A program made the position numbers and the translations under genes. From a virus, in IMG/VR virus record IMGVR_UViG_3300045988_126550, positions 1 through 64,000 of that record: DNA of 64,000 bases. One strand, given 5' to 3'. The stretch's first letter is position 1. Every line of letters starts with the position of its first letter. The notes below the pieces were generated by a model. The model saw nothing but the letters and a program-made list of their open reading frames with translations, was not told where the DNA came from and searched no databases. This document shows positions 9,665 to 30,896 of the stretch, one piece after another.

Positions 9665-11212
9665 TTATTTTTGGTTAGTATCTTTATCTCTGGACGCCTC
9701 GCCCTCATCTGTAAGCTCATTATCTGGCTTGGTCGGCGCTCCGTTCGATCCATCGCCATTTTCTACATTCCCAGACTGAACATTTGACGACACTAGAGGG
9801 GCTATCCACTTGGTTTTAGCAAGTCCAAGTTTATCCTCAAGATATTCTAAACTACGAGTTTGAGCAGGATTAACCCCAAGCAAAGACATTAATTGTAATT
9901 TAATTGGTATTCCATATTGTGATAATTTCAATAATTGATCAATCTTATCATCTTTAAAGTATTTGCTAACATCTGAAAATTCGACGATTACATCTTCAAC
10001 GTTAAAATTATTTTTAATATAAAAGTTAACCCAAACATTAAATTGTGAAACAACGGCCATTGCCGTCATACTTTCAGACATCATTGCATACCGAAAACTA
10101 GTGCTATTAGTAATTTTATTAGAATTTAAAACAATATCACCATTTGTCTCAATCAGATTGGTCAATGCTTTATTAACAACATTGGTATCATTAGCTGCAT
10201 CTGCCTCAAACGTAATATCATTAAGATCCATAGGAGACATACCAAAGGCTACACCTTCTGGCAAAACGCTCTGTAACTTCTGATAAAACTGATTCGCCAA
10301 TTCAAGGTCAATCTGAAAATCATCTACTTCCTTTGAGCCAGAAATTGTATCTATCTTTGCCCAAATAAGTTTATATGCAGATAGCTCGTCTTTAACTGCC
10401 TGAATTTGAGACAAATCAACAAGGTCGATTAAAGAATTAAACAATCCGCTCAATGGAGGAACACCATAATCTAAATTTTCCTCATTAATTTTTAAGCAAA
10501 ATGTTTGTTCTGGTGGCAATTCCTGCCAACGCAATTTACTATCAGACTTATATGAATTATACATCTTCTTGAAAACAGGGTCATATACATCAAGATAAAA
10601 ACTATTAGAACCATCAAAAAACGAAAAATTAAATGCAAAATTAATCTTGCCACTATAATAGTCAACACTAGAAATTTTACAATAATCTGGGTCTAGAATA
10701 TGTAAAAAGAATAAGTCATCTTCTGGGTTTCCATAGCAGAAACAATACACAACATCATCCAGCCACGCTTTAATTAAACATTTTCTAATCTGTGTATCAA
10801 GATGCATTCCCTGTACATAATTGCTTGTCTTAATATAATTTTGATAAGAAGAATCTTCAACTTCTCCATTATCATTTAATCTTGGATAAACAATATAGCT
10901 TTTTGCATCAAATTGATTAGCTTTATTTAACACAAGTCTTCTATACACATGACTAACTGTATATAAAAACTCAGATAATTTTCTAAGGTTCTTTTGGTTA
11001 CTTTCCGTAGAAGGATTTTGTAAATAGCTTCTAAGATTATCTTTAGAATATATAGTATAAGACTGTGATTTACTACTTGTTAAATCAATTAATGTTAAAA
11101 TATCTTTAACCGCAGCAAATCTCGCTCTAGCTTTTTCGTCTTTTTGGAGAGCCGCTATGCGCTCTTGTTCTGTTAGCTCTTTCTTTTTCTGTTCAAAACT
11201 TTCCAAAGGCAT
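9665..11212 (-). CDS. portal protein candidate, 515 aa
   Basis: Immediately downstream of the large terminase. Size and acidic C-terminal tail are typical. GAAAGGAGG SD. No motif-level proof. Confidence 0.6.
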   Translation of the reverse strand: MPLESFEQKKKELTEQERIAALQKDEKARARFAAVKDILTLIDLTSSKSQSYTIYSKDNLRSYLQNPSTESNQKNLRKLSEFLYTVSHVYRRLVLNKANQFDAKSYIVYPRLNDNGEVEDSSYQNYIKTSNYVQGMHLDTQIRKCLIKAWLDDVVYCFCYGNPEDDLFFLHILDPDYCKISSVDYYSGKINFAFNFSFFDGSNSFYLDVYDPVFKKMYNSYKSDSKLRWQELPPEQTFCLKINEENLDYGVPPLSGLFNSLIDLVDLSQIQAVKDELSAYKLIWAKIDTISGSKEVDDFQIDLELANQFYQKLQSVLPEGVAFGMSPMDLNDITFEADAANDTNVVNKALTNLIETNGDIVLNSNKITNSTSFRYAMMSESMTAMAVVSQFNVWVNFYIKNNFNVEDVIVEFSDVSKYFKDDKIDQLLKLSQYGIPIKLQLMSLLGVNPAQTRSLEYLEDKLGLAKTKWIAPLVSSNVQSGNVENGDGSNGAPTKPDNELTDEGEASRDKDTNQK

Positions 11213-11224
11213 CGGCCTCCTTTC

Positions 11225-13273
11225 TTATCCAAATATTTTTTCAACCTGTTTGCGTGGGGTAACAGGTAGCATATCTATAAGTTTATAATTTGTTGTACGT
11301 TTTTTATTACGAATACGCTCTGCTCGTTTTTCTGAAAGCGCCCACGCACATAATGCAGCGCAGTAGCTTCTATCGTCGTGCAGTTTATTGGCTTTTTCTG
11401 GTATCAAATCAAAAGAGTCTTTCCCTGAATCTCTTTTTTTACGTACCATATTAACCATTTCTTCTTTCATAGCATCGATATTTTTAAGTGCAATTTCTTG
11501 ATATGGATCAAGTTTCACAATTTTTGTTTTAATACAGGAAGATTTTTTCATTTCTTCTTCAACCTTCTGCGCAAATTCTGCTTCTGGAATATTTTGCTTT
11601 TTTAGTTCTTCAGAAATACGTTTCTTCTCTGAATTATATAATTTATCATCAACCTCAAATAAAGTTAAATAACCCTTATTATCATAATCATTTGTGAAAC
11701 TAATACAATCAAGATTCATCATTTCAATAAGTGCTTCATATATAATCGACTTATATTGAGTAGGGGAGACAAGCTTTAATTTATTAATAGCATTAGGATA
11801 TTTACTAACATAATCGGCACTATATTCTTTATCTATCAAACCCCTATGTTTATTTCCCTTATCATCTACCCAATCTTCCATCAAGTAGTCTGCAATATTT
11901 ACACCACCGCCACCAGAACCAGCATCTATTAAAACGGCTTCTATATTTTCATAATCTGGAGCGTTCCCATTATAATCCAATATAAGCTCTTTTAAATATT
12001 TAATCTGATCTGGCGTTTGCATTGGAGTTTTTCTCTTCTTTCCAACATCAAGTAAATTAACACAATTTACAATACGTCCTTTATAATCACTATGCTCATC
12101 AATATAAAGTTCCATTATAAGAATAACGCTATTATCTCTAGAACGAGCAGGGTCATATGCAAATATAAACTTTTTCTCGCCCGTATCGTTATACAACAAT
12201 GGAACACGAGTTTCACTATTACGAGCAATGGTACCGCGCTTAATAATGGCATTTAAACCAGCATCTGTCGTAAATTCACAATAATACTCACGGCGTGCTT
12301 TTTCGGGATTCGTCGCCATTTCAGTTTCAACTGTACTACGCATAAGCAAAGGGGCGATGACTTTACCATGCATGGTCGGTTTAAAAGCAACTTCACAATC
12401 TATATGGGCAACAAAATAATCTTGATCTCCCATAAGTTGTCGTTTAGCAAATTCTCTATATAGACGATAAAATTCAGTATCAGTACTCGATGCTGAACTA
12501 ATATAAAATTTTTGGTTCGGAATATTTGTAGGAAATGTACGAAGTCTAATCGGGTCAATAAGATTACCATCTCTATCCTTACCGGTTTTAAAGCTTTTAT
12601 TAACAATGGCAAATGCACCATAAACTTTCATCATTTCTGCCGACAAGAAGCCGGACTCATCAAATATTACAGTTCCACGCATACCTCTCTTGGCATCTAT
12701 ATTACTATTTAAGGTTTGAGTCATTGAACCATTATATAAAGAATACGTAAAACCATTACTTGAATGACTGAATCCATCTCCTGCAGCATTTTTAATTTCC
12801 ACTTCGTGCTTAAAAATATATCCAGTTGAACCAACCATTTCATCAATATTGTCATTAGCCAGACGTTCGAGCGTTGTAAATGTTTGTTCAGCCTGTCCGC
12901 CTGATCCTGATGCTATATAACTCCAAAAGTTATTAAATAGCATCCCTTTGGACATAAGAATTAAATCAATTACTGTAGATTTTCCCAATCCACGGGTCGC
13001 AACAACCAGTACATTTGGACAATTCCAAGACCTTTGAACTATCCATGCCTGTGCATCAATTAATTCTATACCGAAAAAATCACTTATAAATCTAACAGGA
13101 TTACATTGATAATATTTTTGTAATTCTGCAATTTTTATCAATGATTCTATTTTACGAGTTGACATTGCATATACACCGGGTTTTACATATACAACGTTAC
13201 TTTCATTCATTATATCCGAAAGATACTCATCATTCATTTCATCAATTATTTTGATCTTCATCTGACTGCTCAT
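11225..13273 (-). CDS. terminase large subunit
   Basis: 682 aa. Walker A-like VVATRGLGKST, and an acidic Walker B-like VIFDESG. C-terminal nuclease-sized half. Canonical position before the portal. Confidence 0.8.
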   Translation of the reverse strand: MSSQMKIKIIDEMNDEYLSDIMNESNVVYVKPGVYAMSTRKIESLIKIAELQKYYQCNPVRFISDFFGIELIDAQAWIVQRSWNCPNVLVVATRGLGKSTVIDLILMSKGMLFNNFWSYIASGSGGQAEQTFTTLERLANDNIDEMVGSTGYIFKHEVEIKNAAGDGFSHSSNGFTYSLYNGSMTQTLNSNIDAKRGMRGTVIFDESGFLSAEMMKVYGAFAIVNKSFKTGKDRDGNLIDPIRLRTFPTNIPNQKFYISSASSTDTEFYRLYREFAKRQLMGDQDYFVAHIDCEVAFKPTMHGKVIAPLLMRSTVETEMATNPEKARREYYCEFTTDAGLNAIIKRGTIARNSETRVPLLYNDTGEKKFIFAYDPARSRDNSVILIMELYIDEHSDYKGRIVNCVNLLDVGKKRKTPMQTPDQIKYLKELILDYNGNAPDYENIEAVLIDAGSGGGGVNIADYLMEDWVDDKGNKHRGLIDKEYSADYVSKYPNAINKLKLVSPTQYKSIIYEALIEMMNLDCISFTNDYDNKGYLTLFEVDDKLYNSEKKRISEELKKQNIPEAEFAQKVEEEMKKSSCIKTKIVKLDPYQEIALKNIDAMKEEMVNMVRKKRDSGKDSFDLIPEKANKLHDDRSYCAALCAWALSEKRAERIRNKKRTTNYKLIDMLPVTPRKQVEKIFG

Positions 13274-14513
13274 TTTCGGATACCTCCTCGTTAACAGGTT
13301 CTATTTCACTAAGAGGGGAGAAGAGTTCATTTAAATTGATAAGATTCTCTTGCGGCAATAAATCATGCTCAGACAACGTATCTTTCAAATCTAAATTTTC
13401 TCTCAATAAAATCCTACATATCTCTTTATAACTTTCCCTTTCACTAGTAAGTTGAGTTACAAGCTTTCTTTGCTCCGCAACAATATCAGAATATTCAGAC
13501 TCATCAAGAGCAAGTTGCTTTAAAATAGAAGCATTACTCAAATCCATAACCTGTTGCATACCTTTACATGTTGCAATGTCAAATCCATTAACTTCTCCCT
13601 CGCGGAGATTTAATTCTTTAATTTTTTTAATTTTACCAGTCCAAGTATTTTCACCTTTACTCTGATTTTTATTATGTTTTAAGCTTAAGCAAGATTGTTC
13701 CGCCAACAAAGAAACGGTAGAGGCTATATTTTTCTTAGAATCTAGGTAAGATTTAATTTCACCAGATTTATTAGAAACATTTGGAGAAGACATAGCCTTT
13801 GCAATCATATCATCCAGCTTTGCCTGTTGCGAAAATCCACGAACAATAGTGATCGCAGAAGAAATTCTCATCATGTCATCATTTTCTCCACTTGCATCCA
13901 AATATCCAATCAACTGAGAGTAGAGCAGTGGCTTATCTTCTTCTTGTTCATGCTCAAAAGGATCATATCCAAGTAATCTAATAACATCTATACGGTTTTT
14001 TTCATACTCTTCATTGATTTCTTGATTTTTTGGGCGTTGGTCTTCTGATAATTCCTTTCCAATATCTTGTTTAGCTTGCTTAATTGCTTCCTCTTTATAA
14101 TTTGCAAATAAATCCCCATCACGCCAACGCATCGTTTTATACTGCGGCATACTAATATTTTTAATATATGCCGCCCATATATTACTACGTTGCTTTGGAT
14201 TTTTATCATTTATATACTCAAAATAACTAGAATTCCAAATATTTTCGAGGAAGGGTTTATCAAGACGTTCAAGTGCTTCTTGGACGGACGCCTTCGTGCA
14301 ATCACCATATGTCTTAGTCCTAGCATTATAATTTCTTGCAATCTTTTCTGCACAATCCTTACACATTACCGTTTTGCCAGTCATCACAAGCGGATCAGAG
14401 CTCATATAAAAATCTCCAGCTTTTTTAATGGTGTTACAATATGGGCACAAATATTTTTCAATTTGACAAGCCTTAGAAGTTTGTCTTCTTCCAGCACTTT
14501 TACCTGCCGCCAT
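13242..14513 (-). CDS. terminase small subunit candidate (Zn-ribbon N-terminus)
   Basis: 423 aa, overlaps the TerL start by 32 nt. CPYCN..CKDC ribbon. Call is by position only. Confidence 0.35.
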   Translation of the reverse strand: MAAGKSAGRRQTSKACQIEKYLCPYCNTIKKAGDFYMSSDPLVMTGKTVMCKDCAEKIARNYNARTKTYGDCTKASVQEALERLDKPFLENIWNSSYFEYINDKNPKQRSNIWAAYIKNISMPQYKTMRWRDGDLFANYKEEAIKQAKQDIGKELSEDQRPKNQEINEEYEKNRIDVIRLLGYDPFEHEQEEDKPLLYSQLIGYLDASGENDDMMRISSAITIVRGFSQQAKLDDMIAKAMSSPNVSNKSGEIKSYLDSKKNIASTVSLLAEQSCLSLKHNKNQSKGENTWTGKIKKIKELNLREGEVNGFDIATCKGMQQVMDLSNASILKQLALDESEYSDIVAEQRKLVTQLTSERESYKEICRILLRENLDLKDTLSEHDLLPQENLINLNELFSPLSEIEPVNEEVSENEQSDEDQNN

Positions 14514-14540
14514 AACTCTTCCTCCCTCCTGATTAGCATT

Positions 14541-14572
14541 TTGTCACGAATATTATATATTATTCGTGACAA
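14541..14572. other. perfect 12-bp inverted repeat TTGTCACGAATA-N8-TATTCGTGACAA
   Basis: Read directly. Overlaps the stop of 14560..14787. No flanking T-run on either strand. Confidence 0.6.
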
Positions 14573-14787
14573 ATCTCAACGGATTCATCGTTTGCCTGTT
14601 TCTTAAGACTATCATTCAGCTCCGAAAACGCAGCCTCGAAAGCTTCGTCACGCTTAAAAACAAAAATAGTCTTATCTGGGTTTTCCTTAGACTGCTTAAT
14701 ATCTGCAATAGTACATCCAGCGCGTAATAAACGTCTGGCGCATCCGGGGTTAAAAACTAACTTAAAATTCTTTTTAATGTCTTCCAT
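14560..14787 (-). CDS. hypothetical protein, 75 aa
   Basis: Track ORF; AAAGGAGAA SD. Confidence 0.6.
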   Translation of the reverse strand: MEDIKKNFKLVFNPGCARRLLRAGCTIADIKQSKENPDKTIFVFKRDEAFEAAFSELNDSLKKQANDESVEICHE

Positions 14788-14827
14788 TTTATTATGTTCT
14801 CCTTTATTTTTTGTTATTTATATTATT

Positions 14828-14856
14828 AAAACGGCAGTAATTATTAATTACTGCCG
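14828..14856 (-). terminator. rho-independent terminator (11-bp stem, 3-nt loop, TTTT)
   Basis: Gene strand CGGCAGTAATT-AAT-AATTACTGCCG-TTTTAATAATA, downstream of 14880..16070. Confidence 0.7.
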
Positions 14857-14863
14857 AAATAAT

Positions 14864-14878
14864 ATTAATTTTGTATTG
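14864..14878 (-). promoter_or_regulatory. conserved intergenic motif copy
   Basis: Gene-strand CAATACAAAATTAAT, between the stop at 14880 and the terminator hairpin. Confidence 0.7.
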
Positions 14879-14879
14879 T

Positions 14880-16070
14880 TTATAATTTAATATTATAGGT
14901 GCACTGTCTACCATCTTCCGGCGTAAAAATTACTAATGTTTGTCCCGGAGATGAATATAATCTCTTATTATTAGAATACTCATCTGCTCCACATAAGGAA
15001 CGAACTAGAATAGATTCAATACCAAGTTGTTCAAACTCTTCAATGTGGTGCTTGTCTGCAAGGAACGAATAATCAATTGTCTTCCCATAAAGCTTTGAAA
15101 AAATAGTATTTGCAATAACGCCAAAATTCTTAATCTTATCAAGGTCTCCATGGCAACCAATTATATTATATCCACACACACTAAATGCAATAAATTCATA
15201 GTAATCACTTTCAACTATATTAACACGATTATTATTCTGTAATCTTTGCTTTAACCACCATGGAATAATACGTTCCATATTATCTGAGTGAATACTATCA
15301 TCCTTATTTTGGATTGTTCTTGCATGATTACCATATGTAGAATATACATCAACTTGTTTCACTTTAGCAGAAAGCTCATTAATGAATTGCGCCAAAATTT
15401 CAGAAACATGCATAAGCTGCTCGCATGTATTTTCTTCAGACATAACTCTGCAGCCAGAATGAATAGCGCCATGAATTTCATCGCCAAGTAACATAATATG
15501 TAATTTTTCAACATGGTTATACTTTAAATATTGAGAAACTTTTTCATAAAGCTTTTGCACTCTCTGCTTGCATATATCAGTATTATATTTATTCCAAATA
15601 TTGTCTGAGACTTCTCCATAGTGCCAATCCGCTAAAACCAAAATAGCCTCTTTGCCAGATTCAACTACTGGAATATCTGAAAAATTATTTAATTCACGAA
15701 CCGGAAGAGATTTAGCGACCTTAATTAATTCTTCTGTTAAATGGTCTGAGCGGGCATCCATAGTAAGGATTTTATTATATTCACGCCTTTGGTCTTGAAA
15801 TTGTTTTTTGGCTTTATAAAGTTCTTCCTTCTCTTCACGAATTTTCTTCAAATATTCATCCTCAGTGAAAAATGTACTTTCATTCGCTTCCATCATTTTA
15901 TTAAAACTCTGTACCTTTTTTCTATAAGCACTTTCACCATAATTATATCCAAGAGATTCATTTAATATGTCAGCAATATTTTGCCACGTTAAGCCTTGTG
16001 ACTCTTTCATAGAGCATATACGCAATATATATTGTTCTTCATTTTCATTAACTAATTTCTCATACCCCAT
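14880..16070 (-). CDS. calcineurin-like metallophosphoesterase (Mre11/SbcD-type fold) with N-terminal HTH-like region
   Basis: LADWHYGE .. LLGDEIHG .. YGNHAR .. GCHGDLD motif series. ATG 16070 preferred (GGGGTG SD, after the HU stop) over the track start 16130. Confidence 0.7.
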   Translation of the reverse strand: MGYEKLVNENEEQYILRICSMKESQGLTWQNIADILNESLGYNYGESAYRKKVQSFNKMMEANESTFFTEDEYLKKIREEKEELYKAKKQFQDQRREYNKILTMDARSDHLTEELIKVAKSLPVRELNNFSDIPVVESGKEAILVLADWHYGEVSDNIWNKYNTDICKQRVQKLYEKVSQYLKYNHVEKLHIMLLGDEIHGAIHSGCRVMSEENTCEQLMHVSEILAQFINELSAKVKQVDVYSTYGNHARTIQNKDDSIHSDNMERIIPWWLKQRLQNNNRVNIVESDYYEFIAFSVCGYNIIGCHGDLDKIKNFGVIANTIFSKLYGKTIDYSFLADKHHIEEFEQLGIESILVRSLCGADEYSNNKRLYSSPGQTLVIFTPEDGRQCTYNIKL

Positions 16071-16083
16071 AAAATCACCCCAA

Positions 16084-16389
16084 TTATTCTCCATTAATTC
16101 TATATCTAAATGGCTGACTAAATTTGGCATATGGGATAACTCTTTCTGGGGCCATCAAAGTTGTATTATCACGCGGGTTTCTAACTTCGCGTGGGGCAAC
16201 TCTACGAGCGCCAATTGTAACACCGGGGATTAATTTCATCTCAGCATTTTCATCAAAACTTGCTTCCTGCATAACATCAACAACTAGCGCTTCTAGAGCA
16301 GTTAGAAACTCTTCAATATTATACTTATAAAAACCTGTACGATCTGCGAGTTCATTAATTATATCTTGCTTTTTTAGTATTTTATTCAT
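16084..16389 (-). CDS. HU/IHF-family histone-like DNA-binding protein
   Basis: MNK..KQDIINELADRTG..K..IEEFLTAL...V...L .. GARRVAPREVRNPRDNTTLMAPERVIPYAKFS, the characteristic beta-arm R-N-P motif. Confidence 0.8.
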   Translation of the reverse strand: MNKILKKQDIINELADRTGFYKYNIEEFLTALEALVVDVMQEASFDENAEMKLIPGVTIGARRVAPREVRNPRDNTTLMAPERVIPYAKFSQPFRYRINGE

Positions 16390-16402
16390 TTTTTGCTCCT
16401 CC

Positions 16403-16415
16403 TAATTTGTATTTT
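16403..16415 (-). promoter_or_regulatory. degenerate motif copy
   Basis: Gene-strand AAAATACAAATTA followed directly by GGAGGAG, the SD of the HU-like gene. Confidence 0.4.
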
Positions 16416-16602
16416 ATTCATAATCCTCATCATACGAAATAGACATAGAAACCGGCTTATCTAAAAAATCTACAAATAATCTGGATAATTCAATAAATTC
16501 ACCAGTGTCTGGATTCTCAATTCCAATAACGTTATTCTCGTCTAGACCAAGTACTCCCTTTGCAGAGAGCTTATAATTCTTGTTAATACTTGCTTTTGCC
16601 AT
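16414..16602 (-). CDS. hypothetical protein, 62 aa
   Basis: Track ORF; TAGGAGGAG SD. Confidence 0.6.
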   Translation of the reverse strand: MAKASINKNYKLSAKGVLGLDENNVIGIENPDTGEFIELSRLFVDFLDKPVSMSISYDEDYE

Positions 16603-16620
16603 ATTTATTGCTCCTCCTAA

Positions 16621-17331
16621 TCATTCAAGTTCATCAGCTTTTGTTGAAACAATGCCTCTATGATTTGTTGTTAAATGACAAATCTGTGCATATGATTCAT
16701 CTTTGAAATGCTCAATATATTTAACAAAACCACTATTTTCTGGATGGTGATACAAATCACATTGTCCACTATGACCAATTACAATAGTTTTAGAAGTATC
16801 AGAAATTCTTGTTAAAACCTTTTTTAATTCATCTGTATACATATTTTGTGATTCTTCAATAATAACGACTTTATTTTCTAAATTGCACCCTCTTAGATAA
16901 ACATGAGAAATGCAATCAATATATCCAGTTCCATTCTTTTGATTTTCTACTCCTTCTTGAATGACAGAAGTAAACGGATTAATTCCAAGCTTTGCAAGTG
17001 CATCATATAGTGGAGTAGTGTAAATAGATACTTTTTCGTCCGCGCTACCCGGAAGAAATCCAAGTTTTTCTTCCTGAACAGGGCTAACTATATACACGAT
17101 GCCATCATATTCGCCATGTTGTACTAAAAGGTTTGCGGCAGCTACAGCCATTAATGTCTTGCCAGTACCAGCTCTTGCATTCGCAAATACAATTAATTTA
17201 TCCGGATTCAAAATGGCATTTACAAATTCCTTTTGTTCGTTATCTAATGTAAGACCATAAAAGGGGTGCCCCTCAACAGTTCTTGGAGCATCTCCATACT
17301 CGTTTGTGATAGTCTTTTTCTTTGTAGCCAT
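16621..17331 (-). CDS. phoH: PhoH-like ATPase
   Basis: Walker A ARAGTGKT, Walker B VVIIEESQN, and the C-terminal GHSGQCD / HRG pattern typical of the PhoH family. Confidence 0.8.
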   Translation of the reverse strand: MATKKKTITNEYGDAPRTVEGHPFYGLTLDNEQKEFVNAILNPDKLIVFANARAGTGKTLMAVAAANLLVQHGEYDGIVYIVSPVQEEKLGFLPGSADEKVSIYTTPLYDALAKLGINPFTSVIQEGVENQKNGTGYIDCISHVYLRGCNLENKVVIIEESQNMYTDELKKVLTRISDTSKTIVIGHSGQCDLYHHPENSGFVKYIEHFKDESYAQICHLTTNHRGIVSTKADELE

Positions 17332-17345
17332 ATAGTCCCTCCAAA

Positions 17346-17960
17346 TTATAGAATCTCATCAATATCTTTAATAATTCCATCAGCCATGCCAAGAGTAACA
17401 GCCTCTTCGCATGTGATATACCATTCTGTACTCTTTTTCTTATTAAAAGTCTTAGAGTCAATGGATGTTTTATCTAAAATATAATTTCTCATCTTGTCAA
17501 CAAGGGCTTTATATTGTTTCATTTGCTCAGTTGTTTGCTCAAATGAACCACCACAGCCACCGCTTCCACTATGAAGCAAATAATTAGTATTTGGCATAGC
17601 AAAACGCTTATGTCCAGATAATGCAATTAAACATGCTGCCGAATATGCCCATCCCATATTAACAGTTATAATTGGCGTCTTACTGATTTCTACAAGCCCA
17701 ACAAAAGACAATGTATCTTCTAATGTGCCTCCAGGAGAATTAATAAATATCTTAATTGGTTTTCTATCCTCTGGTGGAGTACCTTTGTCTTCTCTGTTCC
17801 AATTCATAATCAGCTTTGATGCTTCAAATAGGCTTTCATCAATTTCCCCCTCGATCCAAATGCTACGATTTTCTACATCCTTATAGAACTGTAGGAGCTC
17901 TGGGTTTGGTAATGAAAGATTCTCAATTGAATTTGGAATTGCGATTGCTAATTGTTCCAT
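17346..17960 (-). CDS. clpP: ClpP-family serine protease
   Basis: INSPGG .. MGWAYSAACLIALSG (Ser) .. LLHSGSGG (His), collinear with ClpP signatures. Confidence 0.75.
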   Translation of the reverse strand: MEQLAIAIPNSIENLSLPNPELLQFYKDVENRSIWIEGEIDESLFEASKLIMNWNREDKGTPPEDRKPIKIFINSPGGTLEDTLSFVGLVEISKTPIITVNMGWAYSAACLIALSGHKRFAMPNTNYLLHSGSGGCGGSFEQTTEQMKQYKALVDKMRNYILDKTSIDSKTFNKKKSTEWYITCEEAVTLGMADGIIKDIDEIL

Positions 17961-18053
17961 GTCTTGTACCTCCCTGTTGTGTGTTTTATTTAATAAAATA
18001 TAAGCATATTCTTATATCATTACTATTTTGTATCAATCCATTTTTTACAGTAG

Positions 18054-18080
18054 CAAAAAATGCAAGTAAATCACTTGCAT
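18054..18080 (-). terminator. rho-independent terminator (8-bp stem), potentially bidirectional
   Basis: Gene strand ATGCAAGT-GATTT-ACTTGCAT-TTTTTT; a T-run is also present on the plus side. Confidence 0.7.
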
Positions 18081-18087
18081 TTTCTAC

Positions 18088-18102
18088 ATTAATTTTGTAT
18101 TG
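18088..18102 (-). promoter_or_regulatory. conserved intergenic motif copy
   Basis: Gene-strand CAATACAAAATTAAT, between the stop at 18122 and the terminator hairpin. Confidence 0.7.
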
Positions 18103-18121: not shown

Positions 18122-19006
18122 CTACATATTCTTCTTTCTCTCTCTATATCTTTGTATTTCTAGCCTCTTTAATTCTCGCAAATGATCTCTTCTACATTGT
18201 TCGCATCTACAAGTTTCCGTAGCAAGAGGGCTTACTAAAAATCTTTTTCCACATTCAATACATTCAATTTCAACGTCACTAGATAACTCATAATCTGGGC
18301 GATGAATACTACAATACTTTGCTGAATTTGACCTAGCCTTAAACCATCTGCCACAAACATCGCATCTTTTATATCCACCATTTTTATAATTCAAAAATGC
18401 ATAAGCAAGTTCCAAATAATCATATTCATCAAGCGTAAGGACGACTTCGTCCTCATCATGATCTACAAAAGCGGCAGTCAAGGCATTATAACCTATACTG
18501 AAATTCTGTTTGAGTAATCCTTCCTTATATGCAAATCCAAAATACAAATCTCTATCTTTGGCTGGTATAACAACCCTTGCAAATTTAAATATTTCAGAAG
18601 TCTTTGCGTAAAATGTATCATTATCTCTTTGACTTTCGGCATTTTGATATTTTGCTAATGCTAAAATGACAAATGCAATTTTTTCTTTCCTTATATCATT
18701 TAAAGACATGATTTTGTCCATTTCTCTTTTTGTAATATTAATAGTATTTACATCTTTAATTTTATATTTATAAGCCTTATTAATATCCTTATTAATGGTA
18801 TTTATATACCCCTGATACATAAAACCATTATAATTTTGAGCCATAAAGTCAACAATTTTCCAAAATACATCATTCTTATCTGCAGGATTTAATTGTGTAT
18901 AATAAATTGCCGCATTCCAAATTGCCTGAGTTATACTAACCCCGTCAATATTTTTATCCTCTATAATGCTATAAATCCTACTTTTTTCATTAAAATTAAA
19001 TCTCAT
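18122..19006 (-). CDS. hypothetical protein, 294 aa, C-terminal Cys4-type Zn-ribbons plus a basic tail
   Basis: CDVCG..CSIH..CIECG..CRCEQC followed by RRDHLRELKRLEIQRYRERKK. Overlaps the stop of the RNAP-like gene by 11 nt. Confidence 0.6.
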   Translation of the reverse strand: MRFNFNEKSRIYSIIEDKNIDGVSITQAIWNAAIYYTQLNPADKNDVFWKIVDFMAQNYNGFMYQGYINTINKDINKAYKYKIKDVNTINITKREMDKIMSLNDIRKEKIAFVILALAKYQNAESQRDNDTFYAKTSEIFKFARVVIPAKDRDLYFGFAYKEGLLKQNFSIGYNALTAAFVDHDEDEVVLTLDEYDYLELAYAFLNYKNGGYKRCDVCGRWFKARSNSAKYCSIHRPDYELSSDVEIECIECGKRFLVSPLATETCRCEQCRRDHLRELKRLEIQRYRERKKNM

Positions 19007-21827
19007 CTATAATTTCACCTCCAATTCTAATAGTTTTATTAGAAAATTTCGTACCACAACAACAAAAATCTGCATTTTCACTCTTTTCTGGATATATAAG
19101 AGTATTATCATGTTTTTCTAACATATTTTTAATAATTTGAGTACCACAAACATCCCAAACTATAGTTTTACTCATTTTTCCAGTATAGCAAATATCTAAT
19201 AAAATATCACAAAGAGACTCTTCATTCGGGCAAATAGACGTCATATCTTCTATGAGAGTTTCTAGAAGTCTGTCTTTATCCTCTAATAATATCTTTCTTT
19301 CTTCTTCATTATTAATTTTTCTACTATTTAAAGTCTTCAAATTCATTAAATAATGCTCGCACAAACCTTTAATTTCTGCATAAGAGCTTCTTTTTACATT
19401 ATTTTTTGATTTATAAATACTATAGTCAAATTCTAATTCTTCACAAGAAAAATTTTCATCAAATTCTTCTTCTATTTTTCTACAAATGCGATTCATAGTA
19501 GAAGGAGACATATCAATAGGGCATTTTGCAGAACAATATTTAACAAATTTCGCCGCATCTTCACTTAAATTATCCATTTTTAGCATATCTTCAAACGAAA
19601 TGCCATATAGGCCAATTGATTTTGAATTGACTTCTTCAATAAATTTTTGATAATTAATTCTTTCTGTATCATAGTTATACATAAAGAAATACGGCTTTTT
19701 ATTTGCACAAATTGTTTGATTAAATGCTTTTTTCTCTTGAATTTCCTCAGAATCATCAGATTTTATAATATTTGCACCATATTGATACCATTCTTTTGGC
19801 ATCGGAATAGGTAAAATCCCCTTTGCTTTATCAATTTCTCTTTGCTGCAGTGCTTGACCACATTGAGTTCTATATCTTAATGTTTCATATTCTTTACTAT
19901 TTGGGGTATAATTTGCCATTAAACTTGTCATTTGTGTAATTTTATTTGTTATAGAGCCAATTTTACTGCCAAATCCAGCCTTATTTGAAGCAATTATATC
20001 CTCTTCTTTAACTACTTTTTTAGGAGCCTTTGTCTGTATGCAATTCAATGCAGGAAGATTAGTTTGTCTTCTTATCAACGACGCATTATTTGTTGTAAAT
20101 AATAAATCACCATCAAAATCAAAGCCATTTAATGCAGCTGGCATTGTATCCCATCCGTTTACAACTATACAAGTATCAATATATTGAAACCAATCAAGAG
20201 CTTTTTTATCTTTACATATATTTTGAGCAACTATAGAATGAGCATTACTCATTGGTGCTCTGAAACAAAGAACTCTATCTACACCTTCATCATACCAATA
20301 TTTACTATAAATTTCACCGGCCTTTAAAATTCCATGTGGTTCTAATCCAAACATACTTTCACAAAGAGCGTATAAATCTCCAGAAAGGATTTGGAAGTTT
20401 CCATGCAGATCCAAAACACCAATTTTAGCGTCTTTTATTCGTCTATTTATCATTTTTTTGATTTTTGAACGAATATAAGGATCATTTATAGCAATTTTAT
20501 CAATCATAAGCGCTTTTGCAATATTTTCAGCAAAAATTACATTTTTCTCGTTTAATCCCTTGCCACATAAATATGCAACGCTTTTTCTTGGATCTAACTC
20601 CATAATATCTTTAATTTCATTAACTGTTGGTGCAATAAGCTCATCTATATCATCATCTGTAAGATCTAAAGACTGTATAAATTGATAATTTAATTGTCTT
20701 ATATCATCATTTTCTTCCTCAGATGTTTTTGTAACCCTTAAAGTATAATGATTCGCAATACATTTTTCATAATAATCTTCCCATGAAGAATAACTGCCGC
20801 ACAACTTAAGCTGACTTTCAGTTAATATTAAATCAGCATCGCGTATATCTCTTTCTTTCCCCCAATAATCTTTAATTAAATACTTTTCTGGATGTTCTAC
20901 AGACGCACCAATAATTTCTTCTGCGAATCTAATAAAATCAAAAGTGAGAGCCATGCCTTTTGTAAACGCACAACGCATATTACATCCGCTCATTGTATGT
21001 TCTGAGTCTCCATTTAGCTCTCCATTCCACCTTTTAGATAAGTTGGGGAGCATCATTGAGCACCCATCCGACATATTATTTTCAAAATCTTCATTATGTT
21101 TCTCTGTTACTTTTGGCTCTACCGTTGGATCACTGTCATCTATTTCAATAAAATTCGTCTTAAAATGAACAACACAGTCTTTTACAACAATAATGCCTCC
21201 GGGAATATTACTTTCACGAGATCTAGGCCAGCTAACTGGAATTGATGCACTAGCGGCAAGTGATTCATAGGCTCCATACTTAGCAGGAGAGAGCTTTACA
21301 TCTGTATTCCTGCCATTTGCTATGCGTCTCTTTAACTCATCATGAATATTTACACTTTGCCCATTGTACTCAACGCATCTATCTGCGGCATATACAACAC
21401 TAGATGTTTTTACTCCATTGGTAGTGCAAATCAATCTTTTATATGCAACTCCATTTACTTTAAATCCTTTATTTGCTCTATCATAATCAGAATTTTTATC
21501 AAAAACCACACACAAATAATCCTTTTTGAACTGTAAATCATATAATTCTGTATATTTTTCTGAAACTTTTTTCTTGTTGTCATCACTATTTGGCTGTTTT
21601 TTAATTTCTTTTATGTCTTTTTTAATTTGTTTTGCTCTTGAATCATAATCCTCAGTTCCATTTAATTCATTAATCCAAGTTAAAATTTGTGAATCAGCCA
21701 AAGAAACAACAACCCCAGGAATTTTTCTTGCGTCTGACAATGGTAACTCTAATTCCCAATTATTTTGCTTGAGCAGACTTGAATTAATTTTATATATATA
21801 CTGTTGTGTTTTTTGCTGTTTTGCCAA
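18996..21827 (-). CDS. RdRP/YonO-like single-subunit RNA polymerase candidate (two-barrel type)
   Basis: Collinear motifs NMRCAFTKGMALTFD (cf. Q-I-R..G.KG of cellular RdRPs), FRAPMSNAHS (cf. R.P.lh), then about 55 aa later NGFDFDGDLLF (DxDGD metal site, cf. beta-prime NADFDGD). Size about 940 aa. Start uncertain: TTG 21827 sits 8 nt after GGAGG; the track start is 21842. Confidence 0.65.
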   Translation of the reverse strand: MAKQQKTQQYIYKINSSLLKQNNWELELPLSDARKIPGVVVSLADSQILTWINELNGTEDYDSRAKQIKKDIKEIKKQPNSDDNKKKVSEKYTELYDLQFKKDYLCVVFDKNSDYDRANKGFKVNGVAYKRLICTTNGVKTSSVVYAADRCVEYNGQSVNIHDELKRRIANGRNTDVKLSPAKYGAYESLAASASIPVSWPRSRESNIPGGIIVVKDCVVHFKTNFIEIDDSDPTVEPKVTEKHNEDFENNMSDGCSMMLPNLSKRWNGELNGDSEHTMSGCNMRCAFTKGMALTFDFIRFAEEIIGASVEHPEKYLIKDYWGKERDIRDADLILTESQLKLCGSYSSWEDYYEKCIANHYTLRVTKTSEEENDDIRQLNYQFIQSLDLTDDDIDELIAPTVNEIKDIMELDPRKSVAYLCGKGLNEKNVIFAENIAKALMIDKIAINDPYIRSKIKKMINRRIKDAKIGVLDLHGNFQILSGDLYALCESMFGLEPHGILKAGEIYSKYWYDEGVDRVLCFRAPMSNAHSIVAQNICKDKKALDWFQYIDTCIVVNGWDTMPAALNGFDFDGDLLFTTNNASLIRRQTNLPALNCIQTKAPKKVVKEEDIIASNKAGFGSKIGSITNKITQMTSLMANYTPNSKEYETLRYRTQCGQALQQREIDKAKGILPIPMPKEWYQYGANIIKSDDSEEIQEKKAFNQTICANKKPYFFMYNYDTERINYQKFIEEVNSKSIGLYGISFEDMLKMDNLSEDAAKFVKYCSAKCPIDMSPSTMNRICRKIEEEFDENFSCEELEFDYSIYKSKNNVKRSSYAEIKGLCEHYLMNLKTLNSRKINNEEERKILLEDKDRLLETLIEDMTSICPNEESLCDILLDICYTGKMSKTIVWDVCGTQIIKNMLEKHDNTLIYPEKSENADFCCCGTKFSNKTIRIGGEIIDEI

Positions 21828-21851
21828 ACGCACCACCTCCAAACCACAAAA

Positions 21852-22091
21852 TTATTCGCCAATTTCTCTTATTTCATAACAATTTTCACAAAAATTATCG
21901 CCATTTTTTAATTTAACGTATTCGCCATTTATCCAATCTCCACAATTATCACATTTATGTGTTTCTGCATAGGTTCCACCACAAGATGGGCACCCATCCC
22001 ATTCTTCATATGGAGGGGAGTCCAAACCGTGTGTTTCTATCCAATGTTTAGGCTCGTTAAAAATACAACCACAATCCAAACAAATAAACAT
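21852..22091 (-). CDS. Zn-ribbon protein, ~79 aa
   Basis: CLDCG..CPSCGG..CDNCG..CENC. ATG 22091 preferred (GGTGGTGA SD). Confidence 0.6.
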   Translation of the reverse strand: MFICLDCGCIFNEPKHWIETHGLDSPPYEEWDGCPSCGGTYAETHKCDNCGDWINGEYVKLKNGDNFCENCYEIREIGE

Positions 22092-22112
22092 AATTATCAC
22101 CACCATTCAAAA

Positions 22113-22460
22113 TTACTCAACCGTCATTGTCATAAGATTTCCATTTTTATCTGGAATACCCATAAAACTTATATTTGTTGTTAATGATTTGTTAGATATA
22201 TAACTTGCAACCTCCCTACCAATGATGTCATAACAGTTAACCGTATCTGCCGACATTTCAATTGTGTTCAATATTGGCTTTACTAATTGAGTAATATATA
22301 CTTGTTGCCCATTCATATTTGTACGTATTTTCAAATAAAATGGTTCACCACTTTCAAAATCAATGGCACTCATATCATAATAAGAAGTCCCACAATACGG
22401 GCATTTATTCTTATTAATATCATATGGAGCTCCGCAATTAGGGCAGTTTCTTCTTCGCAT
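22113..22460 (-). CDS. hypothetical protein with N-terminal Zn-ribbon (CPNCG..CPYCG)
   Basis: Track ORF; ATG 22460 with an AAGGAG SD. Confidence 0.6.
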   Translation of the reverse strand: MRRRNCPNCGAPYDINKNKCPYCGTSYYDMSAIDFESGEPFYLKIRTNMNGQQVYITQLVKPILNTIEMSADTVNCYDIIGREVASYISNKSLTTNISFMGIPDKNGNLMTMTVE

Positions 22461-22471
22461 CAAACCACTCC

Positions 22472-22768
22472 TTAATAGGCTGCTTCTTCTTTAATAAATT
22501 TTAAAATTTCTTTTGCGCAACCATCATCATCTGCATGGCACTCAAAGCATCTAAACGTAGTCGCACAATCATGATATACGAGCTTAGAAAACCAAGATGC
22601 AAGCTCTTCATCAGACATAGAACGAAATTTATCACCATTCGTCATTGGAACTTCAATTTCACCAGTTCCATTACATTCAAGACATTTTTCACTCCAGATG
22701 GAGCAATCATTAAATTTTGAAATAAAACCATGCCCCTTACAAGCAGGGCAACTAATTTTCTTTTTCAT
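22472..22768 (-). CDS. hypothetical protein with DnaJ-type CxxCxGxG zinc-finger repeats
   Basis: CPACKGHG and CLECNGTG; GAGGTGA SD. Confidence 0.6.
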   Translation of the reverse strand: MKKKISCPACKGHGFISKFNDCSIWSEKCLECNGTGEIEVPMTNGDKFRSMSDEELASWFSKLVYHDCATTFRCFECHADDDGCAKEILKFIKEEAAY

Positions 22769-22776
22769 AATTCACC

Positions 22777-23172
22777 TCAACCAAATTGATATTCTACATG
22801 ACCGCATCTATCACAACAATATTCATATTTCGCAGGATAAGAAGTTAGTACTACCATTTCATTGCGACGCATACCGCCTTTATGACATTTAGGGCAAATA
22901 TACTTTGGTTCTGACCATTCTTGTGGATAGCACATAGAATCTTCAATAAATTTACGATATTCATCCGCAGTAGGGAGCCCTGTATTTAATTCACTCACAG
23001 ATACATCACCGGTATTTTTACCATAAGTAATTTGCAACGTCTTCATATCAGTAGTTGTAGTAGTGGTAACAGTCTTATTGATAGGAAAATCATTATTCTG
23101 ACAATTCTCACAAGGGTTAATGATACTCCAATATGGCCCGTTATATGGACAATTCTCACATAATTTATTCAT
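22777..23172 (-). CDS. Cys-rich hypothetical protein, 131 aa
   Basis: Track ORF; CGGAGG SD; several CxxC pairs. Confidence 0.6.
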   Translation of the reverse strand: MNKLCENCPYNGPYWSIINPCENCQNNDFPINKTVTTTTTTDMKTLQITYGKNTGDVSVSELNTGLPTADEYRKFIEDSMCYPQEWSEPKYICPKCHKGGMRRNEMVVLTSYPAKYEYCCDRCGHVEYQFG

Positions 23173-25898: not shown

Positions 25899-25932
25899 TT
25901 ATTATAACACATTTTTCCAGTTTGTCAATGGG

Positions 25933-26241
25933 TTATAGTTCGTTATCTTCTGGTAATTCATAAAATTCATATCCATCATTTGTTTCTACTAAATAGCCAT
26001 ATTCAATAAGATCCGCAATAGCGTCATAATAAGACGACTTCGATAGCCCAGTTTCTTTCATGACATGTGTTCTGCGCAGAATTGGATTCCAGCCGTCATC
26101 ATTTTGCATGAAATAAGTATATAGATAGAATCCAGACTTTGTTAGTACACGCATAGCTTCTTTATTTGCCGCCACATTGGCTTTATAGTAATGATGATCC
26201 TCATCCATAATTGTCTTATTGATAAGGACTTTTTTCTCCAT
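25933..26241 (-). CDS. winged-helix DNA-binding protein candidate, 102 aa
   Basis: ..ETGLSKSSYYDAIADLIEYGYLVE.. HTH-plus-wing pattern. First gene of the minus arm, next to the iterons. Confidence 0.5.
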   Translation of the reverse strand: MEKKVLINKTIMDEDHHYYKANVAANKEAMRVLTKSGFYLYTYFMQNDDGWNPILRRTHVMKETGLSKSSYYDAIADLIEYGYLVETNDGYEFYELPEDNEL

Positions 26242-26255
26242 TGCACCACCCCCAA

Positions 26256-26270
26256 GTTAATTTTGTGTTG
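26256..26270 (-). promoter_or_regulatory. motif copy (variant CAACACAAAATTAAC)
   Basis: 5 nt downstream of the TATTAT -10, followed by a GGGGGTGG SD. Confidence 0.6.
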
Positions 26271-26272
26271 TA

Positions 26273-26301
26273 ATAATAGCACAAGGTTTTAATTTTGTCA
26301 A
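26273..26301 (-). promoter_or_regulatory. sigma-A-like promoter TTGACA-N17-TATTAT for the wHTH gene
   Basis: Gene strand TTGACAAAATTAAAACCTTGTGCTATTAT; the iterons begin 8 nt upstream of the -35. Confidence 0.55.
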
Positions 26302-26305: not shown

Positions 26306-26575
26306 GTGTGTCCCAATTTTCGGAATATAGTGTCCTAATTTTCGGAAAAATTATTCCAGAAAATAGGACGCTTAATATAATATATATTAATATAATAATT
26401 TAATATAATATAAATCACAAAAAACAAGATGGTATGGGCGCGGCGAGTGGTGGTTAAAGATAGTGTCCTATTTTTCGGAAAAAGTGTGTCCCATTTTTCG
26501 GAAAAAAAATTCCGAAATTTAGGACACTTAATATAATTATATTTAATATAAAAAATATTAATATAATAGGAGGGC
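26306..26575. repeat. iteron array: six copies of a ~17-bp repeat TGTCCYAWTTTTCGGAA in two [direct, direct, inverted] clusters, each followed by a ~45-bp A+T tract
   Basis: Copies at 26309-26325, 26331-26347, 26354-26371 (inverted), 26464-26480, 26487-26503, 26510-26526 (inverted). The following tracts CTTAATATAATATATATTAATATAATAATTTAATATAAT and CTTAATATAATTATATTTAATATAAAAAATATTAATATAAT are themselves related. Confidence 0.85.
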
Positions 26576-27950: not shown

Positions 27951-28132
27951 CTTATGTTCTCGTGTCTATGTGTTTTTGCATAGATGCGTTTTTATATATT
28001 TCACCGGGCTATGAGGTGTGAGTCCCCATAGCTTAACAAACAAACACCCAGTGTGAAACAGACGAGCATTATATGCTAGTCAATCTCGACGAGTGTGAAA
28101 CACGAGTCAATAATATTTAGGAGGTACAAATT

Positions 28133-28336
28133 ATGAAAAAGTCCATCATCATCTTCTCTGCTATCTGTCTCATGCTCATTGCCTATATCATTGGTGTCAA
28201 GGTTGGTCGCAACGAGGCTATTCATAATGCTTACTTGGTGAGTGACGACGGCGATACCTACGTCATTGGTTACGGCTACAATAATGACGACGAGCTTGAC
28301 GATGAATATCATGAATACATCCGAGAGGAGGAATAA
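28133..28336 (+). CDS. small membrane-anchored protein, 67 aa, acidic C-terminus
   Basis: MKKSIIIFSAICLMLIAYIIGV helix; TAGGAGG SD. Confidence 0.65.
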   Translation: MKKSIIIFSAICLMLIAYIIGVKVGRNEAIHNAYLVSDDGDTYVIGYGYNNDDELDDEYHEYIREEE

Positions 28337-28339
28337 TCT

Positions 28340-28576
28340 ATGAACAAACTAACCCTTATCCAATTGCTCAACGTAGCAAACATCCCTTTCTTATCTTACA
28401 CCGACAAGGTTGTCTTTGTGGTTGACAATGAACTCCACGAATGTTTTCTCGATGAGCACGATTGTGTAGCCGCAGAAGAAACATGGTTTGACGGATGCAC
28501 ACTTGATGATTATGTCAAAGAAGCTGGGAGGAATAAATGCACTCCACCATGTGAAGATGAGGAGGTTGATGAATAA
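28340..28576 (+). CDS. hypothetical protein, 78 aa (tandem paralogue 1 of 3)
   Basis: GAGGAGGA SD; ..VVFVVDNELHECF..CTLDDYV. Confidence 0.6.
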   Translation: MNKLTLIQLLNVANIPFLSYTDKVVFVVDNELHECFLDEHDCVAAEETWFDGCTLDDYVKEAGRNKCTPPCEDEEVDE

Positions 28577-28578
28577 AC

Positions 28579-28794
28579 ATGAGCATTGAATTACTACTTA
28601 AAACTCTGGCGCTCAAGTGTACACATATCATTTGCACCGACCTTAGCATTGTGTTTGAGGTCGGCAATGTTTTGCATGAAGCAATGTATGCACATGGTCA
28701 TGTCTATCAGGAGTACATCTTGAGTGACATGACACTCAACGACTACATTGCACTTTGCAAAACTCATCATGTTCACTATCAACAAATTGCTTAG
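28579..28794 (+). CDS. hypothetical protein, 71 aa (tandem paralogue 2 of 3)
   Basis: GAGGAGG SD; ..IVFEVGNVLHEAM..MTLNDYI. Confidence 0.6.
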   Translation: MSIELLLKTLALKCTHIICTDLSIVFEVGNVLHEAMYAHGHVYQEYILSDMTLNDYIALCKTHHVHYQQIA

Positions 28795-28806
28795 GAGAAA
28801 CACAAA

Positions 28807-29082
28807 ATGACATTTACATTCACTGACCTGAAGAATCTCTACTATGGATGTCACTTCATTGGCTGGGCTGATGGCATAATGCCAACAGCTTACGACGCAG
28901 GAGTTCTATTCGTTGCAGATAGCAACCACAACATCATTGCACAGTTTGAGAGCGTCTATGATGAAGAACGTGACATTTGCATTGGCTTTAAGCCCAACGA
29001 ACTGAACATTGAAATGCTTGGGCATCACACAATTGACTTAATGGAGTGGCTTGACGGTGGATGCACAATCAGAGAGTTTTGA
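28807..29082 (+). CDS. hypothetical protein, 91 aa (tandem paralogue 3 of 3, more diverged)
   Basis: TAGGAGAA SD; ..VLFVADSNHNIIAQF..CTIREF. Confidence 0.55.
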   Translation: MTFTFTDLKNLYYGCHFIGWADGIMPTAYDAGVLFVADSNHNIIAQFESVYDEERDICIGFKPNELNIEMLGHHTIDLMEWLDGGCTIREF

Positions 29083-30872: not shown

Positions 30873-30896
30873 GGCAAATAGAAAGGAGAATGTAAA

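Follow-up and report, generated by a model that had tools for sequence, protein, structure and literature searches.

The locus considered here lies on the minus strand of the IMG/VR virus record IMGVR_UViG_3300045988_126550, of which positions 1 to 64,000 were analysed (this whole stretch of 64,000 nucleotides is called the window). It raises the question of what kind of RNA polymerase is encoded by a long open reading frame (ORF) of this virus, which template the enzyme uses and whether it works with a partner. An earlier note, made from the sequence alone, had placed the ORF at 18996..21842 without giving its strand and had read the product as a single-chain two-barrel polymerase of the type of SPbeta YonO and the cellular RNA-dependent RNA polymerases (RdRPs), possibly assisted by the product of an overlapping ORF. 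The ORF itself was confirmed; it lies on the minus strand and encodes 948 amino acids (aa) when counted from a TTG codon. The polymerase is a new, divergent member of the large, already known YonO/cellular-RdRP family. In all the related loci that were compared it is paired with a Zn-ribbon partner protein, and in YonO the partner is partially fused to the polymerase. The evidence concerning the partner is the main addition to the earlier note.

The three sequence motifs reported previously are present, collinear and in the order then given. In what follows, residues are numbered on a 943-aa product, except for the motif spans, which are given in the 948-aa numbering. The motifs comprise the beta-like barrel motif R285-x4-K290-G291 (CNMRCAFTKGMALTFDF, 20934..20984 (-), aa 287-303), the beta-prime-like barrel motif R523-A-P525 (VLCFRAPMSNAHSIV, 20229..20273 (-), aa 524-538) and the metal-binding triad D570-F-D572-G-D574 (ALNGFDFDGDLLFTT, 20091..20135 (-), aa 570-584). 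Their spacings had been overestimated, measuring 237 and 46 aa instead of about 270 and 55 aa. Eight residues are invariant in every two-barrel RNA polymerase (RNAP), and in QDE-1 these are D709, R738, K743, R962, P964, D1007, D1009 and D1011 (Ruprich-Robert and Thuriaux, PMC2919709). The polymerase of the window has all eight, namely D254, R285, K290, R523, P525, D570, D572 and D574. Seven of them are covered by the three motifs; the eighth, overlooked earlier, is D254, the equivalent of QDE-1 D709 and the fourth catalytic Asp, which lies with the likewise invariant G255 in the segment NMSDGCSMM (21051..21077 (-)). The spacing is close to that of QDE-1, with 31 versus 29 residues from D to R, R-x4-K in both proteins, and 47 versus 45 residues from R to D. 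An alignment of the polymerase with 78 full-length relatives (26-56% identity) contains D254, G255, K290, G291, R523, P525, D570, D572 and D574 among its invariant columns, and R285 is conserved in at least 90% of the 79 sequences. With these eight residues in place, the active site is intact.

Database searches confirmed the relationship. The Pfam RdRP family PF05183 matched aa 120-635 with an E value of 2.5e-14, its 53.4 bits exceeding the gathering cutoff of 23.8, and a pairwise BLASTP comparison with SPbeta YonO gave 27% identity over 528 aa (aa 116-633, E 4e-31), which places the similarity of the motifs well beyond chance. The alignment with YonO pairs MRCAFTKG with VRLPWVKG, FRAP....H with LRSPH, and GFDFDGD with QFDNDGD. 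Among cultured relatives, tblastn found 36-37% identity to c-st and the Enterocloster phages, 29% to BUCT082 and 26% to SPbeta yonO (E 4e-19). Used as a single sequence, the polymerase had no match among the PDB chains; the family profile gave weak matches to RDR2 and QDE-1, with an E value of 2e-4 for maize and Arabidopsis RDR2, and aligned the SDG...R....KG and GxDxDGD segments to SDGIG, IRYGGYKG and GGDLDGDLFF of RDR2.

An AlphaFold2 model built on the 79-sequence alignment had a mean predicted local distance difference test score (pLDDT) of 94.0 and a predicted template-modelling score (pTM) of 0.90. In a Foldseek search of the PDB, the top 21 matches were all plant RDR2 or fungal QDE-1 (E 1e-16 to 6e-11), each with a probability of 1.00, a template-modelling score (TM) of 0.39-0.51 and about 770-985, mostly 910-985, aligned columns. 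The next match was RNA polymerase II Rpb1 (E 0.12, TM 0.08), and the remainder had E > 0.1. The best matches in a library of viral predicted structures were uncultured-phage proteins labelled "RNA-dependent RNA polymerase". Neither the sequence searches nor Foldseek found the structure of a YonO-type enzyme in the PDB copy used. No different fold was assigned, RDR2 and QDE-1 being the only significant PDB matches, so that the Pfam match, the homology to YonO and the RDR2/QDE-1 fold together bear out the earlier claim of a single-chain YonO/cellular-RdRP two-barrel polymerase. According to the model, the polymerase is a full-length two-barrel enzyme with both double-psi beta-barrels in one chain. 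No Pfam RNA_pol_Rpb family matched the protein, and homology to the multisubunit RNAPs was not found beyond the barrels. T7-like single-subunit RNAPs and viral palm-type RdRPs, which have a right-hand fold of palm, fingers and thumb, were likewise absent from the Pfam and Foldseek matches.

As to the start of the gene, the earlier note was right in proposing a non-ATG codon, but the in-frame TTG at 21827 is a likelier start than the TTG at 21842. The strong Shine-Dalgarno sequence GGAGGTG (21834..21840 (-)) overlaps the TTG at 21842, whereas its GGAGG core lies 8 nucleotides (nt) before the TTG at 21827. Public gene calls contain a product of exactly 943 aa (P0001) with 100% identity and coverage to the polymerase. 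From the Shine-Dalgarno spacing and the public call it is most likely that the start codon is the TTG at 21827. The polymerase gene is thus placed at 18996..21827 (-), encoding a YonO-type single-chain two-barrel RNAP of 943 aa.

The family is extensive. At 50% identity it comprises at least 1,677 cluster representatives with E <= 1e-3, of which 422 have E <= 1e-30, and at least 523 relatives were confirmed in IMG/VR. The polymerase matches three PHROGs without an assigned function, the first full-length, the second N-terminal and the third C-terminal; neither the polymerase nor the partner has a model in NCBIfam. Near-identical polymerases are found on metagenomic contigs of about 145-166 kb, and nr lists a cluster 99% identical to the polymerase under the name "MAG TPA: RNA-dependent RNA polymerase [Caudoviricetes sp.]". 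Since a near-identical protein already bears a label there, the polymerase alone is not a discovery. A search for near DNA among sequenced phages returned no match to the window, whose clade consists of uncultured gut phages of about 145-170 kb. The sole match in a bacterial genome (87% identity) is on a 147-kb contig, USJD01000001.1 (L086), in a metagenome-assembled genome of an uncultured Prevotella. This contig is probably of phage origin, and Prevotella as the host is doubtful, because all cultured relatives infect Firmicutes.

The gene of the partner (294 aa, ATG start, 18122..19006 (-)) overlaps the stop codon of the polymerase gene by 11 nt. The description of this product as a co-oriented Zn-ribbon/basic protein was well founded: it has two invariant Cys clusters, and 10 of its last 24 residues are K or R. 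Zn-ribbon 1 (18302..18364 (-)) has the form C215-x2-C218 ... C232-x2-H235, and Zn-ribbon 2 (18194..18262 (-)), weakly similar to S27e and C2H2 Zn-ribbons, the form C249-x2-C252 ... C266-x-C268-x2-C271. The metal sites are marked by the invariant residues C215, C218 and C232 with H235 (at least 90% conserved) in the first ribbon and by C249, C252, (C266), C268 and C271 in the second. The partner has 328 detectable homologues, all unnamed and none with a Pfam domain, and it is homologous to CST177 of c-st (E 1e-20).

The linkage of the two genes was surveyed in 82 loci, which included 79 IMG/VR loci with 41-98% polymerase identity together with c-st, CB473P3 and SPbeta. With a single-sequence tblastn search, the partner was found directly downstream of the polymerase in 61 of the 82 loci. 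With a jackhmmer profile, the ORF immediately downstream was a partner homologue in each of the 79 loci where such an ORF was called (E <= 2e-58); the loci lacking a called ORF were L021, where the contig ends, L032, where tblastn has a match at the same place, and SPbeta. In the majority of loci the two genes overlap or are separated by no more than about 30 nt. The Spbetavirus BUCT082 encodes a 924-aa polymerase and an overlapping 278-aa partner (positions 6034..6870 of its record, E 2.4e-38) exactly at the yonO position, and in TR-TP1 the next ORF matches the N-terminal two-thirds of the partner (E 5e-9).

The partner is also seen as part of the polymerase chain itself. Its profile matched aa 736-830 of YonO (20.7 bits, E 1.2e-8) and aa 797-848 of the Perkons polymerase (13.5 bits, E 7.8e-7). 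The fused core consists of the ribbon CxxCG..F....N..KYCxxC and a basic tail, the partner segment YKRCDVCGRWFKARSNSAKYC matching YonO aa 796-816. A shared W-x3-G-x5-N helix at the C-terminus of the polymerase directly precedes either the fused ribbon or the gene boundary. The suggestion of an accessory factor is thereby strengthened: the partner is syntenic in all the loci compared, and its ribbon is fused in YonO and Perkons.

The predicted structure of the partner (pLDDT 70) has a confident N-terminal helical bundle, followed by a helix-strand-helix-helix-strand-strand arrangement of winged-helix topology and, in its C-terminal part, by two ribbons and a long basic helix. A profile search of the PDB with the partner returned generic Zn-finger and S27e ribbons only (E >= 0.009). 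The universal linkage, the apparent translational coupling and the domain fusion suggest that the partner is likely a subunit or an initiation factor of the polymerase. No Pfam or NCBIfam family and, at a significant level, no fold in the PDB matched the partner, and no similarity to sigma regions 2/4 or to the Zn-ribbon and cyclin folds of TFIIB was found; the protein may work like an initiation factor without belonging to either family.

The genomic surroundings bear on the role of this pair. The window has two divergent arms, with a switch of GC skew at about 26 kb. Two consensus sigma-A-type promoters stand at the head of the leftward arm (25901..26301 (-), TTGACA-N16/17-TGnTATAAT/TATTAT); the one at 26301 scores 11/12 and the one at 25928 scores 12/12 with TG. 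They are followed on the minus arm by small ORFs, the polymerase gene, the partner gene, a hairpin and the downstream block. A strong terminator-like hairpin with a U-run (18053..18087 (-), -18.3 kcal/mol, z = -4.9) would close the polymerase-partner unit, and in other clades, too, the partner gene is followed by an equivalent hairpin. The co-oriented block beyond it (9665..17960 (-)) contains genes of a ClpP-like protease (17346..17960 (-)), PhoH (16621..17331 (-)), an HU-family protein (16084..16389 (-), PF00216, 36.5 bits), a metallophosphoesterase-type exonuclease (14880..16130 (-)), the large terminase (11225..13273 (-)) and the portal protein (9665..11212 (-)), with a 423-aa ORF between the exonuclease and large terminase genes. 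The order polymerase, HU, exonuclease, terminase, portal parallels that of yonO, yonN (HU), yonK, yonJ and the late genes in SPbeta. BUCT082 and TR-TP1 share this order, the pair in BUCT082 being followed by HU, YonK and a metallophosphoesterase. On the plus arm are the genes of a DnaB-like helicase, RecJ and an integrase-family protein, together with those of several homing endonucleases.

The polymerase gene is directly preceded, within its transcription unit, by a row of four small Cys-rich ORFs (84, 116, 98 and 131 aa, 21852..23172 (-)), with several CxxC pairs and weak matches to Zn-ribbon families of Pfam.

YonO is a strictly DNA-dependent RNAP with a strong preference for DNA templates (Forrest et al. 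2017, PMC5467207). It cannot work without its Asp triad, as the 3D>3N mutant is inactive, and it transcribes the late operon of SPbeta from one start site, which is located downstream of yonO-yonN (PMC5467207). Loss of YonO in SPbeta silences 37 late genes, and it was left open by Forrest et al. whether the enzyme recognises promoters alone or via a factor (PMC5467207). In the present study, the start site was bracketed by the positions of the published primer-extension primers on the SPbeta record (L001). The bracket, L001:8946-9139, is located 285-480 nt past yonN and no less than 1.2 kb short of yonK, which places the YonO start just downstream of the polymerase gene cluster.

The explanation that best accounts for these observations jointly, and which is held to be highly probable, is that the window encodes a two-barrel polymerase with a partner subunit or initiation factor, and that both are made early by the host and the polymerase then transcribes phage genes. 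The host RNA polymerase would make the polymerase and its translationally coupled partner early, from the sigma-A-type promoters at about 26.3 and 25.9 kb, and this early leftward unit would stop at the hairpin 18053..18087. The polymerase would then transcribe phage genes that are out of reach of the host enzyme. Its likeliest targets would be the morphogenesis and packaging block just downstream, which by synteny corresponds to the place where the late promoter of YonO was mapped in SPbeta. The partner, as a subunit or initiation factor, would provide DNA or promoter binding by its winged-helix-like domain, two Zn-ribbons and basic helix.

Several points weigh against this scheme. Consensus sigma-A-type promoters lie within the presumed late region itself, at about 14.58 kb, at about 9.65 kb (upstream of the portal gene) and at 4.79 kb, which weakens a strict division into early and late genes. 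The host polymerase could transcribe many structural genes, and the regulon of the phage polymerase may be smaller than that of SPbeta YonO or different from it. As for the partner, the fusion concerns a Zn-ribbon segment of about 45-95 residues with the modest scores given above, the model is of only moderate confidence, and its Foldseek search gave no significant match (best E 0.1, to weak winged-helix proteins). Adjacency alone could equally reflect a chaperone or a regulator. Because the model is moderate and the fold search gave no significant match, the role of an initiation factor is what we infer from linkage, fusion and the type of domain.

A broader role for the enzyme is suggested by a motif that recurs in the window and for which the earlier note had proposed the polymerase as a natural reader. 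The sequence TACAAAATTAA, with a 16-nt extended form ACAATACAAAATTAAT, has 36 matches at up to one mismatch, where 8.2 +/- 3.0 are expected, and none of 100 shuffles reached 36. On both arms it is almost always on the coding strand, and about 15 of the 20 exact copies stand 12-33 nt upstream of a start codon. One copy (18089..18099 (-)) directly follows the stop codon of the partner gene and is conserved in relatives with about 59-98% polymerase identity, while the loci at about 56% have the variant TACAAAATTAT there. In L012, L018 and L021 a copy precedes the start of the polymerase gene by about 30 nt, and in L019 and L021 the polymerase gene has an insertion in which an exact copy stands ahead of an endonuclease ORF of the GIY-YIG type. 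Relatives have the motif only if their polymerase is about 56% identical or more; a clade at about 42% identity, c-st and CB473P3 lack it, and it is not enriched in SPbeta, which has one stray antisense copy. This restriction indicates that the motif tracks the phage lineage and is not a universal host signal.

All this would agree with a general phage transcriptase, the polymerase and partner using ACAATACAAAATTAAT as the promoter of most genes on both arms, at about 20-36 sites. Such a role is nonetheless rather unlikely, since many copies of the motif are tied to sigma-A-type promoters. Five exact copies and one variant have the consensus sigma-A -10 box of a -35/-10 pair exactly 5 nt upstream, which puts the motif at about position +1 of a host-polymerase transcript at those sites, and three or four further copies are embedded in the -35/-10 spacers of consensus sigma-A promoters. 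Promoter and motif occur together within 55280..55350, for example, and the motif occurs by itself within 36400..36450 and 47180..47230. The copies at 18099 and 14875 run straight into terminator-like hairpins within 5-10 nt (18053..18099 (-) and 14832..14875 (-)). Besides, YonO in SPbeta has one late start site, not dozens, and an RNA-level element of the 5' leader, such as a translational operator or a processing site, or the site of another regulator fits the data equally well. The motif could thus be a promoter of the phage polymerase, an RNA-level 5'-leader element or a site of another phage regulator. The presence of a hairpin in place of a ribosome-binding site after the copies at 14875 and 18099 is odd for a promoter. 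In the clade at about 42% identity, no clade-specific dispersed motif was found. One of its loci has a tandem array of about eight GC-rich 70-nt repeats upstream of the polymerase gene (L039:1257-1816), and words related to this repeat recur in several sister loci.

A second candidate element lies beyond the hairpin. The sequence AATAGTAATGATATAAGA (18010..18027 (-)) is the copy in the window of a TAnAATGAWAG box, which is found in similar form in about 20 of 48 non-redundant loci of both clades, 41-106 nt (mostly 64-106 nt) after the partner stop codon. In an unbiased 7-mer test, with expectations taken from other intergenic DNA of the same loci, AATGATA and ATGATAG were enriched, AATGATA being present in 13 of 48 segments against 1.6 expected. 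A Gibbs sampler, run on the regions that follow the partner gene to detect a common promoter box, returned nothing but the GC-rich hairpin, and a weight matrix seeded from the clade at about 42% identity had its top matches off the expected site in the window and in unrelated loci. Since the box is present in about 40% of the loci and the matrix failed to generalise, it is kept only as a candidate late-promoter or leader element.

One may speculate further that YonO-type polymerases are two-component enzymes in general and that the partner, a separate protein in most phages and in part fused to YonO, is a minimal promoter-specificity and initiation factor, directing the enzyme in the clade of the window to ACAATACAAAATTAAT or to the downstream box; this extension is put forward tentatively, as possible but improbable. 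If it is true, the partner would take, in those two-barrel polymerases that look the most ancient, the functional place of sigma or TFIIB, and it would explain how YonO finds its promoter, a question open since 2017. The partner is a concrete candidate for the missing factor of YonO, and its counterpart in YonO, aa ~796-839, is directly testable. Bacillus subtilis phages offer a genetically tractable pair, with the fused form in SPbeta and the split form in BUCT082, and the window provides a clean, uninterrupted example of the split architecture of polymerase and partner.

A true RNA-dependent RNA polymerase, copying phage or host RNA to give antisense RNA, double-stranded RNA or amplified regulatory RNA, would be suggested by the nearest solved structures, which are eukaryotic RNA-dependent enzymes, and by the name of the Pfam family together with the labels in nr and GenBank. 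This is, however, very unlikely. The only characterised bacterial or phage member of the family, YonO, has the template preference described above, and the gene, which belongs to a double-stranded DNA (dsDNA) phage, occupies the place of yonO in a module like that of SPbeta. By its homology to YonO and its synteny, the polymerase is most likely DNA-dependent. The widespread public label "RNA-dependent RNA polymerase", transferred from the name of the Pfam family, is probably misleading for these phage proteins and probably wrong for a dsDNA phage. Least probable of all is a replication-associated polymerase making primers or R-loops at a phage origin instead of messenger RNA, for which the DNA-template complexes among the QDE-1 structures (7y7r-7y7t) and the nearby HU and exonuclease genes could be cited, as the replication genes (DnaB-like helicase and RecJ) are on the other arm, the neighbours of the polymerase gene are packaging and head genes, and loss of YonO affects late genes.

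The polymerase and its partner can be compared with several known systems. SPbeta YonO is a homologue that also combines the two barrels in a single chain and shares the R-x4-KG, R-x-P and DxDGD motifs, and its gene likewise heads an HU-exonuclease-terminase-portal module. The polymerase of the window is longer (943 versus 839 aa), and its C-terminal region, which ends in a small beta domain, is unlike that of YonO. The Zn-ribbon and basic tail are on the C-terminus of YonO itself, whereas in the window they are on the separate 294-aa partner, which has about 200 extra N-terminal residues. The closest cultured relatives, c-st (CST179/CST178 and CST177), Enterocloster PMBT24, CB473P1-3 and BUCT082, have the same split architecture, with polymerases 29-37% identical over 84-96% of the length. 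CST177 was already described as 'YonO-homolog (C-ter only)' in the 2005 annotation of the c-st genome, and the literature also mentions the c-st homologue.

The eukaryotic QDE-1 and RDR2 (PF05183) have the same overall fold along the full length and the same eight active-site residues, at 11-14% identity to the polymerase of the window; they act on RNA in silencing, while the phage enzyme, by analogy with YonO, most likely acts on DNA. The multisubunit RNAPs (beta and beta-prime, or Rpb2 and Rpb1) share the residues of the barrels, with an NADFDGD-type triad, R-x-P and K...K, but the polymerase of the window is about one quarter of their size and holds both barrels in one chain. In the non-virion enzymes of phages AR9 and phiKZ, the fifth subunit is the promoter-specificity subunit of a sigma-less phage RNA polymerase. 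The partner is likened to it by concept alone, as a dedicated small protein of a sigma-less two-barrel phage polymerase.

The polymerase genes of some relatives are interrupted, at two hot spots on invariant residues: within DFD|GD (aa 572/573) and after D666. Insertions at DFD|GD were found in c-st (L002:6630-6946, 317 nt) and CB473P3 (L003:2345-2771, 427 nt). Those after D666 are in CB473P3 (L003:~3084-3515, ~430 nt) and in L019 and L021 (L021:7969-8996, 1,028 nt), the 1,028-nt insertion carrying the GIY-YIG-type endonuclease ORF mentioned above, of 223 aa. The polymerase gene of the window is uninterrupted, in which it differs from those of c-st (at DFD|GD) and CB473P3 (at both sites). The interruptions explain why the N-terminal and C-terminal PHROGs are distinct and why so many representatives of the family are truncated. 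No group I or group II intron was detected by Rfam in the insertions of c-st, CB473P3 and L019, whether the gathering threshold or E <= 0.1 was applied, and the c-st insertion folds no better than its shuffles (z = -1.5); the status of the insertions as introns is unproven.

Several Rfam RNA motifs were observed near polymerase genes of this type. In SPbeta, a DUF3800-VIII RNA (L001:10021-10086) lies in the long leader between the region of the YonO start site and yonK. A DUF3800-XI RNA is found 1.9 kb downstream of the partner gene in L012 (L012:11578-11628), RAGATH-18 just upstream of the HU gene in c-st (L002:10923-10983), and RAGATH-4 and RAGATH-16 in L037 (L037:1178-1555). Such orphan motifs could be elements of YonO-dependent transcripts.

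Some other features of the window were noted away from the polymerase locus. A group I catalytic intron (4650..5032 (-), Rfam, 68.9 bits against a gathering cutoff of 50) lies between the ORFs 5020..6045 (phrog_4088) and 3903..4595 and probably interrupts a gene of the structural region. Four ORFs of the HNH or homing-endonuclease type are located at 8628..9596 (-), 37127..38332 (+), 48491..50104 (+) and 53578..55017 (+); one of them is the next ORF after the portal gene, and another immediately follows the DnaB-like helicase gene. The divergent control region between the arms contains two 82-nt direct repeats, 74% identical (26317..26554), with repeated units GTGTCC(T/C)A-TTTTCGGAAAA, which have the look of an operator array beside the leftward sigma-A-type promoters. 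The beginning of the rightward arm (28000..34000) is a GC-rich island, with a GC content of 0.42-0.45 compared with about 0.33 elsewhere and a weaker GC skew.

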